Below are positions 31,525 through 35,601 of a stretch of DNA of 64,000 bases, in pieces. A program made the translations under genes and the position numbers. Each line of letters starts with the position of its first letter. Position 1 is the stretch's first letter. The notes under the pieces are model-generated. The model had not been told where the DNA came from. It was given only the letters and a program-made list of their open reading frames with translations, and ran no database searches. The stretch lies in assembly GCA_965214605.1 (NCBI GenBank), contig OZ243961.1, positions 3,456,001-3,520,000 of the forward strand, in the 5' to 3' direction. Source of the DNA: an uncultured Candidatus Binatia bacterium. GTDB lineage: Bacteria > Desulfobacterota > Binatia > Bin18.

Positions 31525-32487
31525 ATGGCAATTTTGATTACGGGCGGAACAGGATTTCTGGGTCGGCATTTAACCCGCCATTTACTAGAGCATGGTGAGC
31601 AGGTGGTGATTTTTGACGCGGTTCCCAATCGGCGGGCCGTGGCCGGGGTCGCCGATCAGATAAAGATCATCCAGGGCGACGTGATGGAACCGACGTCTCT
31701 CATGGACGCCATCCGTTCCAACGATATCGAGGGGATTATTCATCTGGCCTATTACCTGGGGACCGGCGGGATGCGCAACCCGCTGCCGTCAATTAACGTC
31801 AACTGTATTGGGACGACAAACATCTTTGAGGCGGCCCGGCTCAGCGGTCTCAAGCGGGTCGTGTATATGAGTTCGGTTGCCGTGTATCCCATGCGGACGA
31901 CTATGAGTGGCCCAGCCCTAGACGAGGACGCGCCACCAAAACCCGACGCCAATAATCCGGGTGGCCTGTACGGAGCGTGCAAGCTGTTCAACGAGCACAC
32001 GGCCGAGTATTACGCCAACGCCTACGGCCTGGAGCCGGTTGGGATTCGGCCGACTTCGGTGTTTGGTGAGGGGCGCGGCCAACGACGTGGAGCGGCCGGA
32101 GACCACTTTATGGTCTTGCCCGAACTCGCTCTGCTCGGACAGCCGGTCGTCATGCCGCCTGACGAACAGATCGCGGATTGGCTGTACGTCGCCGACGCCG
32201 CCGAAGTCTTTCGACTCGGCTATCACGTCCCCACCCCTTCCCACCGTATCTTCAACATGAGCGGACCGAGTCGAAAAACAGGCGAGATTACCGCCTATCT
32301 CCGTGAGATTCTACCTGGCGCCGATATTTCGGTCAGTGATAAACCGTTTGTGATGACTTCACTATTCAACACTGACCGCCTGCGTGATGAGCTTGGTTTC
32401 ACGCCTCAGTATACGGTTGAGAAGGGTATCCTGGCCTATCTGAACGATGTCAGACGGCGCGAGGGTATGCCCCTGGAGCCACGCTAG
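31525..32487 (+). CDS. NAD-dependent epimerase/dehydratase (extended SDR)
   Basis: TGGTGFLG, IIHLA, YGACK; AAGGAGG RBS. Confidence 0.93.
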   Translation: MAILITGGTGFLGRHLTRHLLEHGEQVVIFDAVPNRRAVAGVADQIKIIQGDVMEPTSLMDAIRSNDIEGIIHLAYYLGTGGMRNPLPSINVNCIGTTNIFEAARLSGLKRVVYMSSVAVYPMRTTMSGPALDEDAPPKPDANNPGGLYGACKLFNEHTAEYYANAYGLEPVGIRPTSVFGEGRGQRRGAAGDHFMVLPELALLGQPVVMPPDEQIADWLYVADAAEVFRLGYHVPTPSHRIFNMSGPSRKTGEITAYLREILPGADISVSDKPFVMTSLFNTDRLRDELGFTPQYTVEKGILAYLNDVRRREGMPLEPR

Positions 32488-32506
32488 CCCGAGACGAGGA
32501 AGCAGT

Positions 32507-33592
32507 ATGGACTTTGGGGTCAGTTTTCAAACCCATATCCAGCACAGCTGGAAGCATGCAATACTGGCCGAGCAGATGGGCTTTTCGCACGCTTGGTTTA
32601 TCGACAGCCAAATGCTGGCGTCCGACGTCTATGCCTGCCTGGCCCTGGCGGCCGAACATACCCAGACAATTCGCCTGGGCACGGCAGTGGCCATCGCCGG
32701 GACGCGGATTGCGCCGGTCATTGCCCACTCGATTGCCAGCATCAACCAGCTCGCACCGGGCCGGCTCATCCTCGGTCTGGGCACCGGCCACACCGCCTGG
32801 CGAGCGATGGGCATGCCGCCGGCTCGACTCGACGACTTCCGGCACACAATCGAGGTGTGTCGAAACTTGTTGGCTGGACATAGCGTTGACTATCACGAAC
32901 GTGGCCGGACCCGTACGATTCGCTTTTTCGACCTGGAGCACGGCTATGTCAACGTGCAGGATCCGGTACCCATCTACGTGGCGGCCGCCGCACCCCAGGC
33001 GTTAGCCGTGGCTGGGGAGCTGGGAGACGGGATCATTACCATCAGTGTCTTGTCTGCAGATATGCTCCGATCGACCCTGGCTGGTACGGTTCAGGGACGG
33101 CGGGCGGCCGCCGCCGGACCGGCATGGCCGGTTGTCACGGTTGGTGTGTCATGCGTTTTACGACCTGGTGAAGCCCTGGACAGCCCACGGGTGGTGGCGC
33201 GGGTCGGCCCGCGTATCGCGGTTGGCCTGCACTTCGGCTACGAAGCGGTCAAGCGCGGCAAGCCCGCCCCGGCTTCTACACAGGCCTTTCTGACCCCTGA
33301 CTACCAAGCCTATCTTGACGAGCGCTGGCAGGAGATTCACGCGACCCACTCGCGCTTCCTGCATCCTGGCGAAGAGAAGTTCATCACCCCGGAGGTCGTC
33401 TCCACAATGAGCCTGACCGGAACGCGAGAGGAGATTATCGCCCGTATCAGGCAGCTTGAGGCGGCCGGACTGAGCCAAATAGTCATCTCTCCCCCGTGGG
33501 GCTATGTTGAGGAGAGTATCGTCGAGTTTGCCCAGGAGATTATCGCCCATTATGAGGCAGGCTCCCTTGCCCTGGCTCGTCAGAAGGCTTAA
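32507..33592 (+). CDS. LLM class flavin-dependent oxidoreductase
   Basis: AEQMGFSHAWFIDSQM, IRLGTAV, NQLAPGRLILGLGTG; start reset to MDFGV. Confidence 0.92.
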   Translation: MDFGVSFQTHIQHSWKHAILAEQMGFSHAWFIDSQMLASDVYACLALAAEHTQTIRLGTAVAIAGTRIAPVIAHSIASINQLAPGRLILGLGTGHTAWRAMGMPPARLDDFRHTIEVCRNLLAGHSVDYHERGRTRTIRFFDLEHGYVNVQDPVPIYVAAAAPQALAVAGELGDGIITISVLSADMLRSTLAGTVQGRRAAAAGPAWPVVTVGVSCVLRPGEALDSPRVVARVGPRIAVGLHFGYEAVKRGKPAPASTQAFLTPDYQAYLDERWQEIHATHSRFLHPGEEKFITPEVVSTMSLTGTREEIIARIRQLEAAGLSQIVISPPWGYVEESIVEFAQEIIAHYEAGSLALARQKA

Positions 33593-33636
33593 GCTCGAAG
33601 AGACCAAGCCCGAGGAAACGCAAAGGAGAGCGGTAT

Positions 33637-34464
33637 ATGGCAGACCAGAATTATAGTCGGCCTGAGATGCTGGTTGAGACCGACTGGCTGGCCGAGCATC
33701 TCCAAGACGCCAATCTGTGTGTCGTTGACTGTGATAACCGTGAGGCCTACCGCCGGGCGCATATTCCTGGGGCGCTGATGTTTCGCGGCCACCACTATTT
33801 AAAAGAAAAAGAGGGGGCGCTGCACCTTATGGGGCCCGAGCAGTTTGCCGAAACCATGGGTGGAGCGGGGATCGGGGATGATACTGTGGTAGTTGCCTAC
33901 GACGGATTCAGTGGGCTGTACGCCACCCGTCTATGGTGGGCGCTCAACCATTATGGCCACACCCAGGTCACTGTCCTAAACGGCGGCTGGGACGCTTGGT
34001 TAGCCGAAGGACGGCCGCTGACGAACGCGCCCGCCAAACGCGCCCCGGCGCGTTTTAGCCCGCGAGTGAATGAGGAGTTGATCGCCCGTTGGGACTATGT
34101 CCAGGACTTGATCGCTCAGCCCAACCGGGTGCTGCTCGATGTACGATCTGACGGTGAATGGACCGGGGAGAACGCACGGGGCACAAAGCGGGGGGGACGT
34201 ATCCCTGGCGCCGTTCATCTCGAATGGCTGAACGCTGTTGATAATCAGACCAAAAAGTTTAAACCCGCCGCCCAACTGCGAGCCATGTTTGCTGAGGCCG
34301 GAATCACCCCTGAATCAGAAGTCGTCACCTATTGACAGGGTGGGATCCGTGCGGCGCACGGACTCTTTAGTCTGCGTTTAGTCGGTTTTGACAGGGTTCG
34401 GAACTATGACGCCTCGTGGGCCGAGTGGGGCAATCGGGAAGAATTACCCCTCGAAAAGGACTAG
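33637..34464 (+). CDS. Tandem-rhodanese sulfurtransferase (SseA/TST type), probable selenoprotein with UGA=Sec at residue 233
   Basis: HIPGA, LNGG..W, LDVRS, GRIPGA; VVTY-TGA-QGGIRAA continues in frame to NYDASWAEW..PLEKD-TAG, 275 aa in total. Confidence 0.88.
34346..34362 (+). promoter_or_regulatory. Bacterial SECIS-like hairpin
   Basis: TCCGTGC-GGC-GCACGGA perfect 7-bp stem; G-led loop begins after 17 intervening nt from the in-frame TGA. Confidence 0.72.
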
Positions 34465-34679
34465 CGAGTGAGGAAGGGAATTGCCGCTAGGGCGAGGGCA
34501 CCGGCGGCGAGAATAGCCCCGATCCCCCAGGCCGGTGCCCGGTGACGGTCGAGCGCCGCGCCACAGTAGATGCATTCGGACAGAAACGAGCCACCGGTCA
34601 CATACACCCGGTTCCACTTGTGGCACACCGAACACCAGGGCTTTGGACGCCCTTGAAAAAAAGTCGCGAACTGAACCAT
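34461..34679 (-). CDS. Small zinc-ribbon protein with C-terminal transmembrane helix (72 aa)
   Basis: CSVC...CIYC pairs, hydrophobic tail; AAGGA RBS before ATG. Confidence 0.55.
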   Translation of the reverse strand: MVQFATFFQGRPKPWCSVCHKWNRVYVTGGSFLSECIYCGAALDRHRAPAWGIGAILAAGALALAAIPFLTR

Positions 34680-34764
34680 AAACGCTATCCTTACTAGGAA
34701 GGTCAGTTCCAGACTAGCATACACCGGTGCCAGCGTCGAGGTCGGGGAGTCTACCACTGCCCCT

Positions 34765-35601
34765 TTAGCGACGCTTTTCCGCTCGGTGCTGCTTTGTGAG
34801 GTGGGGGGCCACCACGGCCATGAGTTGGGGATGAAGGAGGCGGTTACTGGCAACGAGTCCTTGGAGCAGGGTGGTGACTTGGTTGAAGAGTACCGGCTTT
34901 CCGCCCAGGGTGGTGAGCATGCCTCCAGCCTCTTCGATCAGCACGGTGCCAGCACACAGATCCCACTCATTCTTTGGCACGAGGGTAAAAGTCGCGTCGG
35001 CCTCACCCTTGGCAATTGTGGCTAGCTTATGCGCCATGCCACCGGCTGGCCGGACGTGAAACAGAGACCGAAACGGCCTCCATTCGCCCCGTTTTGTTTC
35101 TGAGCGGCTAGACAACACCGTCGCATCGGCCAAACGCTCCGTCGGGCTAACGCGCAGCGGTATATCGCCTGTGGCGGCCTCTGTTTGGACCCAAGCCCCC
35201 TGGCCGCGCACGGCCCACACCAACTCGTCTAGGGCCGGGTAGTAGATGACACCCAGGAGAGGCCAACCATCCTCAATCAGGCCGATTGAGACGGCGAACT
35301 CGGGGATTTTGTCAATAAACTCTTTGGTCCCGTCAAGCGGGTCAACAACCCACACGCGGCGCTTGGACAGCCGGGTTGGGGAATCGATGGTTTCTTCTGA
35401 CAACCAGCCGTCGTGCGGAAAGGCGTGGTGGATCATCCGATGGATCTCGTAATTGGCCTCGCGGTCGGCAACGGTGACCGGGCTGTCGTTGTGTTTGTAC
35501 TCTACGCGATAGTTCGTCTCATACAGCGCCCGAATCAGCGCGCCAGCCGCACGGGCAGCAGACATGGCCGTAGTTTTTTCGTGCTCCAGCCGGTCTGTCA
35601 T
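34765..35601 (-). CDS. cysQ: 3'(2'),5'-bisphosphate nucleotidase CysQ / inositol monophosphatase family
   Basis: PVTVAD, LSEE, WVVDPLDGTKEF, EWDLCAG. Confidence 0.88.
   Translation of the reverse strand: MTDRLEHEKTTAMSAARAAGALIRALYETNYRVEYKHNDSPVTVADREANYEIHRMIHHAFPHDGWLSEETIDSPTRLSKRRVWVVDPLDGTKEFIDKIPEFAVSIGLIEDGWPLLGVIYYPALDELVWAVRGQGAWVQTEAATGDIPLRVSPTERLADATVLSSRSETKRGEWRPFRSLFHVRPAGGMAHKLATIAKGEADATFTLVPKNEWDLCAGTVLIEEAGGMLTTLGGKPVLFNQVTTLLQGLVASNRLLHPQLMAVVAPHLTKQHRAEKRR

Follow-up and report, generated by a model that had tools for sequence, protein, structure and literature searches.

A UGA codon at the catalytic position of a tandem-domain rhodanese from an uncultured Binatia bacterium probably encodes selenocysteine

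Is the TGA codon at positions 34333-34335 of a 64,000-nucleotide stretch of DNA from an uncultured Candidatus Binatia bacterium (assembly GCA_965214605.1, contig OZ243961.1, positions 3,456,001 to 3,520,000; this whole stretch is referred to here as the window) the end of a sulfurtransferase gene, or is it read as selenocysteine (Sec, U)? With translation table 11 the open reading frame (ORF) 33637..34335 on the forward strand encodes 232 residues, which end in ...SEVVTY before this TGA. If TGA is translated as U, the same frame goes on for 42 codons, as QGGIRAAHGLFSLRLVGFDRVRNYDASWAEWGNREELPLEKD, up to a TAG at 34462-34464, and the product has 275 residues with U at position 233. Nucleotides 34346-34362 (TCCGTGC / GGC / GCACGGA) can form a hairpin of seven perfect pairs with a three-nucleotide loop at 34353-34355, and 17 nt (34336-34352) separate the TGA from that loop. 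A first-pass annotation of the window had described the stop after VVTY, the continuation to a TAG in the same frame and the perfect 7-bp stem with its G-led loop at this spacing, with coordinates that are all correct, and had proposed that residue 233 is selenocysteine. Here we present comparative evidence that the UGA very probably encodes selenocysteine at the catalytic residue of a tandem rhodanese, together with a conserved selenocysteine insertion sequence (SECIS) hairpin.

The protein and the frame downstream of the UGA

The full-length translation is matched by the Pfam Rhodanese model (PF00581) over two stretches (E = 4e-35), that is, by two rhodanese domains in one chain, and aligns along its whole length to solved tandem rhodaneses with E values from 2e-48 (1UAR) to 1e-35. 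In the alignment to 1UAR, U233 falls in the column of the catalytic Cys (YCRIAERSSH) and U233-QGGIR is aligned with C-RIAER, which agrees with the placement of the UGA at the catalytic cysteine in the first-pass annotation. The nucleophile that heads the six-residue active-site loop in the C-terminal domain is present, as Sec in place of Cys. The part encoded after the TGA also contains YDASWAEW, an instance of the YDxSWxEW signature that the annotation had pointed out and that is common to the solved rhodaneses. By the same alignment, a product terminated at residue 232 is missing the active-site loop as well as the last part of the catalytic domain. Among NCBIfam models the best match is to the 3-mercaptopyruvate sulfurtransferase (3-MST) equivalog NF008557, whose cut-off of 250 bits is not reached by the score of 143 bits; because this score is far under the cut-off, we do not assign a substrate class and do not file the protein as a 3-MST. 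We are highly confident that the gene would yield a tandem-domain rhodanese sulfurtransferase of the SseA/thiosulfate sulfurtransferase (TST) type in which U233 is the catalytic residue.

We compared the locus across 61 genomes, comprising the window genome, 36 others of its family, one of the sister family and 23 more distant members of the class. These contain 39 matches at 55-100% identity, each with exactly one TGA over its full length. The TGA form is found in 35 of the 36 other family genomes, in the sole sister-family genome and in none of the 23 more distant class genomes, and no stop occurs in any of the listed matches at or below 41% identity. In all 39 extracted loci the TGA lies within YUQGGIRAAHG and the next 41-42 codons are conserved; in 4 of the first 30 of these loci the true stop is itself a TGA.

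These observations bear on the possibility that the TGA at 34333-34335 is simply a stop. In that case the gene would be a truncated or decaying rhodanese, its 232-residue product would lack the active-site loop, and the frame beyond the TGA would be a relic. Gene calling with table 11 does yield that product, and at least 68 of the best 120 protein-database matches, at lengths of 223-262 amino acids, likewise end at ...TY, as one would expect from the remark in the first-pass annotation that pipelines truncate Sec rhodaneses. Moreover, Sec insertion in bacteria is generally incomplete, and some truncated product probably also forms. A decaying gene, however, would be expected to gather frameshifts and stops, and none are seen; the codons after the TGA are open as well as conserved in every one of the 39 relatives, and TGA forms of several phyla, with protein identity as low as 42%, keep this frame too. 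The missing catalytic loop and domain end, and the selection on synonymous sites after the TGA that we describe below, also speak against a true stop, which we consider extremely unlikely.

The reading of the UGA as selenocysteine is further supported by the alternation of Sec and Cys at this column. Full-length Cys orthologues at 72-73% identity (P0003, P0005 and P0006) carry YCQGGIRAAH. A scan of one genome per species, with the peptide fixed, any synonymous codon accepted and TGA, TGC or TGT allowed at the column, returned 78 TGA and 2 TGC forms among the matches listed (80 loci, 97 stretches), under titles that name Dehalococcoidia, SAR202, Chloroflexota, Binatia, Entotheonella and Methylomirabilota. 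The Sec forms recovered in the scans are 42-89% identical to the window protein. A midpoint-rooted FastTree phylogeny built from 105 Sec and 38 Cys forms shows Sec and Cys sequences intermingled in several blocks, and the Cys orthologues at 72-73% identity are placed among the Binatia Sec forms, an arrangement that would fit repeated Sec/Cys switching inside one orthologous subfamily. Cys/TGA alternation with a conserved hairpin, which the first-pass annotation had suggested looking for among homologues, is what we find, close relatives being mostly of the TGA form. We also note that two Dehalococcoidia genomes with Cys-form loci (G061 and G062; loci L080 and L136) have a selB match above cut-off, which covers the first ~345 of 581 model positions; loss of Sec from the rhodanese need not accompany loss of the Sec trait.

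Synonymous sites and folding of the hairpin

We find selection at the level of the RNA on the hairpin, and this selection is tied to the UGA. Aligning 30 orthologues codon by codon gives 113 invariant columns of degenerate amino acids, only 7 of which use a single codon throughout. Tyr232 (TAT) is one of these seven frozen columns, and the other six are codons 237-242 in a row (ATC CGT GCG GCG CAC GGA), which form the hairpin; the neighbouring Gln, Gly, Leu, Phe and Arg columns each vary among 2-6 codons. The same codons dominate a wider set of 117 TGA loci among the matches listed, which hold 105 distinct 72-nt sequences and in which some genomes are reached twice: ATC is found in 116, CGT in 116, GCG in 117 at each of the two Ala positions and CAC in 117, while the last codon is GGA in 102, GGC in 10, GGG in 3 and GGT in 2. 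The 15-nt core of the hairpin is exact in 115 of these 117 listed loci. Given that the Sec forms share just 42-89% identity with the window protein, the RNA core is better conserved than the protein.

Cys forms of the same peptide provide a control for the peptide and for codon usage. When the 401 genomes in the class to which one Cys-form genome belongs were searched for the Cys-form pattern, that genome alone matched; as this gave no more control sequences, Cys forms were taken from a metagenome scan with the same peptide, which supplied 73 distinct sequences from 80 loci among the matches listed. These Cys forms use all synonymous codons at the hairpin residues (Ile 38/23/12, all six Arg codons, all four Ala codons at both positions, His 39/34). 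Because the codons are free in Cys forms, neither the peptide nor codon bias accounts for the frozen codons of the TGA forms, which go with the UGA. Of the 73 listed Cys forms, one has the exact 15-nt core and two can form all six stem pairs. The one exact core belongs to L169, a metagenome contig (match 301-330) with TGC and a complete hairpin, which is plausibly a recent Sec-to-Cys change.

The six residues IRAAHG can be encoded in 2304 synonymous ways, among which the natural encoding ties with three others for the most stable (-10.2 kcal/mol). The co-most-stable encodings differ only at loop nucleotide 1, and this nucleotide is G in all 117 listed TGA loci. Since an invariant G at this position has no effect on stability, it points to sequence-specific recognition of the kind expected for SelB. 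Stability would therefore explain the stem, and the invariant loop G would need sequence-specific recognition.

On its own, the 17-nt hairpin has a folding energy of -9.9 kcal/mol (z = -3.08), which 1 of 200 shuffles matches. In an RNAalifold consensus of the 105 distinct sequences an invariant 6-bp stem is the only conserved structure. The bacterial SECIS (bSECIS) model, as given in the Fig. 2 legend of PMC13188914, has an apical loop of 3-9 nt, a stem of 4-16 bp, a UGA-to-loop distance of 16-37 nt and a minimum free energy of -7.5 kcal/mol or lower; the loop has G within its first two positions, in most cases with G or U as the next nucleotide. The hairpin lies within each of these bounds, with its GGC loop of 3 nt, stem of 6-7 bp, spacing of 17 nt and energy of -9.9 kcal/mol, and an excerpt of a second source (PMC11431864) gives 17 nt for the minimal upper stem-loop of a bacterial SECIS.

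Selenocysteine machinery and alternative readings

The first-pass annotation had tied its proposal to the presence of selA, selB, selC and selD in the genome, and all four are there: the window genome (G000; 4.37 Mb, 99.99% complete) contains full Sec machinery, with every one of the four above curated cut-offs. The tRNA-Sec scores 72 bits against Rfam RF01852 and is called tRNA-SeC with anticodon tca by ARAGORN. It lies directly beside selA (583 bits), the two being found at C1:3624480-3625952, ~104 kb past the window end. selB (382 bits) adjoins selD (388 bits) at G000:C1:1899798-1902715, also outside the window (loci L010 and L017). One in-frame TGA is present in selD, where Sec falls in the motif GUAGK and is followed by a GGUCC-GGC-GGACC hairpin, and in selD and the rhodanese alike the GGC loop occupies nucleotides 21-23 counted from the U of UGA. 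TGA ends 870 of the 2149 open frames of at least 300 codons in this genome, and its frequent use as an ordinary stop excludes a genetic code in which TGA is a sense codon.

We also looked in the genome for further selenoprotein genes and further copies of the hairpin. No PF00384 match with an internal stop, as expected of a Sec formate dehydrogenase, is present in the genome. A genome-wide scan for TGA codons that have a GGC-loop hairpin behind them, at offsets 19-21, proved non-discriminating (26 open-frame matches, against 19 in a reversed-genome control), and only the rhodanese and selD among its matches looked like genes. The rhodanese holds the sole exact copy of the 15-nt core in the genome; allowing up to 2 mismatches gave 12 forward and 16 reverse copies, compared with 10 and 9 in the control, and none beyond chance. 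The notion that the rhodanese is the sole or main client of the Sec machinery is weakened by the wider distribution of selA, which is above cut-off in 56 of the 61 genomes, including 18 of the 23 class genomes that have no TGA rhodanese.

The machinery and the hairpin bear in turn on a second alternative, in which the UGA is read through without Sec, whether through near-cognate suppression or because Cys or Trp is inserted, and the hairpin serves as a read-through stimulator or ribosome pause. The inserted residue is predicted here from sequence, and misinsertion of Cys for Sec under selenium limitation is known in other systems. Nevertheless, the genome keeps a whole machinery dedicated to Sec and uses TGA frequently as an ordinary stop, the recoded position is the column of the catalytic Cys, where Sec and Cys form a classic pair, and the hairpin shares both loop sequence and spacing with the selD SECIS of the same genome. 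A mere roadblock is also at odds with the G that is fixed at the first loop nucleotide without adding stability. We regard read-through without Sec as very unlikely.

A third alternative, that the TGA stands for a TGC or TGT misread in sequencing or misassembled, has next to no chance of being correct. We found no point in its favor, and the same TGA is present in the 117 listed loci from independent assemblies; the first-pass annotation had named such an error as a way in which it could be wrong, and the recurrence of the codon in more than 100 independent assemblies argues otherwise. In two studies, either of which may have supplied the window itself, contigs cover the gene from end to end and show 0 differences; the runs listed are contig sets, with no RNA run among them. 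For contigs that these runs hold from other organisms, the match is confined to 34318-34367, which holds the UGA and the hairpin, and the sequences diverge on both sides. We also observed that summed contig depth rises two- to twenty-fold at 34309-34364, over just these bins, in three metagenome runs; this depth peak is an independent sign of the conservation of the UGA/hairpin segment.

Selenocysteine at residue 233 is favored by the machinery, the TGA orthologues and the frozen hairpin codons, which together lend support to the proposal of the first-pass annotation. Several observations nevertheless weigh against it. Two of the TGA forms, L092 (CGC) and L099 (ATA), have one stem mismatch each. 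In 40-nt and 60-nt contexts the hairpin has z values of -1.90 and -0.91, respectively, so that it does not clearly outperform shuffles, and we therefore do not treat folding energy as the main evidence; it is the comparative data that carry the case. RNAalifold found no compensatory changes and no conserved lower stem among the 105 distinct sequences, which leaves a gap in covariation; as the stem pairs are invariant, structural support comes from the frozen synonymous sites and not from paired changes. No Rfam family matches near threshold. One family genome (G023, 84% complete) contains Cys-type matches only, and another relative (G029, 97% complete) contains a TGA form at 67% identity and no selA at E <= 1e-60, which may reflect an assembly gap or a real loss. 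The pattern scans cover the matches listed and require YxQGGIRAAH(G), and so are samples and not censuses, and related genomes are non-independent observations. Finally, the case is built on sequence, from which selenium incorporation and read-through of the UGA are predicted.

If the UGA does encode selenocysteine, SelB carrying Sec-tRNA(Sec) would bind the hairpin CCGUGC-GGC-GCACGG in the mRNA, whose core begins 11 nt past the UGA and whose GGC loop lies 17 nt past it, and would deliver Sec to the UGA in the A site in place of termination by release factor 2. In the finished enzyme, the sulfane sulfur being transferred would then sit on the selenium of the U-Q-G-G-I-R loop (Se-S-) and not in a cysteine persulfide. 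SelB binding, the actual incorporation of selenium, and the sulfur donor and acceptor are inferred here. Any advantage of Sec in catalysis may lie in its lower pKa, in its being a better leaving group, and in resistance to irreversible over-oxidation.

The locus and its place among known systems

The coordinates of the features discussed here are given in Table 1. The N-terminal of the two rhodanese domains presumably has no catalytic residue, as in tandem rhodaneses generally. On the minus strand, a small ORF (34461-34853) converges on the rhodanese stop; a core of ~50 of its residues is kept beside the rhodanese in 17 of 29 family loci and in 1 of 80 scan loci, and the ORF has no Pfam or NCBIfam match. 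Upstream, a luciferase-like F420-type oxidoreductase gene (32447-33592, plus strand), for which all NCBIfam matches are under cut-off, ends 45 nt before the rhodanese start. We considered the oxidoreductase as a conserved operon partner and rejected it: 16 of 29 family loci have it near the rhodanese, as against 1 of 80 scan loci. Since it is not a conserved partner across phyla, we draw no function from operon context.

Table 1. Features of the rhodanese locus in the window
Feature	Position	Strand	Basis or remark
Shine-Dalgarno-like AAGGAG	33623..33628	+	8 nt upstream of the ATG; motif read from the sequence, function presumed
Full coding sequence, putative Sec-containing tandem rhodanese, 275 residues, U233	33637..34464	+	TGA=U translation, Pfam, 1UAR alignment, relatives
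N-terminal rhodanese domain, residues 15-123	33679..34005	+	best Pfam stretch
UGA predicted to be read as selenocysteine U233, catalytic-Cys position	34333..34335	+	alignment to 1UAR Cys and Cys orthologues
Active-site loop U-Q-G-G-I-R, CxxGxR-type cradle of tandem rhodaneses	34333..34350	+	translation, alignment to solved rhodaneses
Predicted SECIS hairpin UCCGUGC-GGC-GCACGGA	34346..34362	+	conserved core 34347-34361, loop 34353-34355
42 post-UGA codons, rest of the catalytic rhodanese domain including YDASWAEW	34336..34461	+	in-frame conservation, 1UAR alignment

The gene is of use for annotation because, as recorded at present, a whole clade of sulfurtransferases appears without an active site. 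The TGA form is near-universal in the family of the window (35 of the 36 other genomes) and is common in Dehalococcoidia/SAR202, Entotheonella and others. A compact conserved gene with a minimal SECIS would also make a good test case for selenium at an active site that carries a persulfide. Taking these points together, one could imagine that, with a single 15-nt core kept over at least four phyla and with IRAAHG allowing about one encoding that both folds and is G-led, the catalytic loop and the recoding signal have become locked to one another, and that uncultured aerobic lineages (SAR202, Binatia, Entotheonella) widely use the Sec form as an Se-S carrier that resists oxidation and is invisible to annotation, perhaps one that handles selenium as well and possibly feeds SelD. 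We regard this joint scenario as speculative and, taken whole, improbable.

The solved structures to which the protein can be aligned from end to end are not all of one source: it pairs with the Thermus thermophilus rhodanese 1UAR, with the Mycobacterium SseA/CysA-type thiosulfate sulfurtransferases (3HZU, 3P3A, 3HWI and 3AAX), with Azotobacter RhdA (1E0C) and with bovine rhodanese (1RHD). It has in common with the solved tandem rhodaneses the C-terminal YDxSWxEW block and the catalytic column, but differs in that the solved proteins all have Cys there and in its loop, which is UQGGIR as compared with CRIAER in 1UAR. Single-domain rhodanese selenoproteins (NCBIfam NF041203, rhodanese_LYCAU, with CxU; COG0607 forms) resemble it in the rhodanese fold and in having Sec in or beside the active-site loop, but are ~126 amino acids long, with one domain and another Sec motif. 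The NF041203 model matches our protein weakly (35 bits, with the cut-off at 115), and the match, at residues 102-128, falls in the wrong domain.

At the RNA level, the hairpin resembles SECIS/bSECIS elements of the Escherichia coli fdhF type in that it lies within the coding sequence directly after the UGA and has a small G-led loop. The fdhF SECIS contains a bulged U and the loop GU. The rhodanese hairpin differs from it in having a GGC triloop and a perfect stem of 6-7 bp, without a bulged U and with no conserved lower stem.

The closest comparison is with a selenoprotein family that has already been catalogued, and the first-pass annotation was right that Sec rhodaneses had been predicted before. 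In the passages available, "rhodanese-related sulfurtransferase" (COG2897, 3 sequences) is one of the selenoprotein families newly predicted by the Sargasso Sea study (2005), which has a figure with its SECIS, the Global Ocean Sampling (GOS) study has the family under cd01449 (8 sequences) and COG2897 (1 sequence), and reviews of 2022 and 2026 list it, the latter as form 4 with the motif UxxG. As described there, this family (COG2897/SseA, cd01449) shares with our gene the tandem SseA type, Sec at the catalytic Cys, UxxG (here UQGG), a small hairpin with a G-led loop just after the UGA, and many Cys homologues. Our protein has the features given for form 4 in those passages, namely UQGG at Sec, PF00581 and best-matching structures of the SseA/TST type. 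We accordingly file the gene, as a predicted selenoprotein, in the COG2897/cd01449 family, going by the published description of its members; the kinds of selenoproteins known are unchanged by it. The published passages on the family give small counts and name no Binatia or Chloroflexota. In the limited collection of literature covered, judged by titles, no experimental study of a Sec rhodanese was found, and, by title and term counts, no study was on the subject of selenocysteine with SAR202, Binatia or Binatota. Near-invariance of the 15-nt core across phyla and the Cys-form control are likewise absent from the passages that treat the family. What the present locus adds to this known family, then, is the strict link of the UGA to a nearly invariant 15-nt SECIS core, the Cys forms that serve as its control, and the matching SECIS in selD of the same genome.

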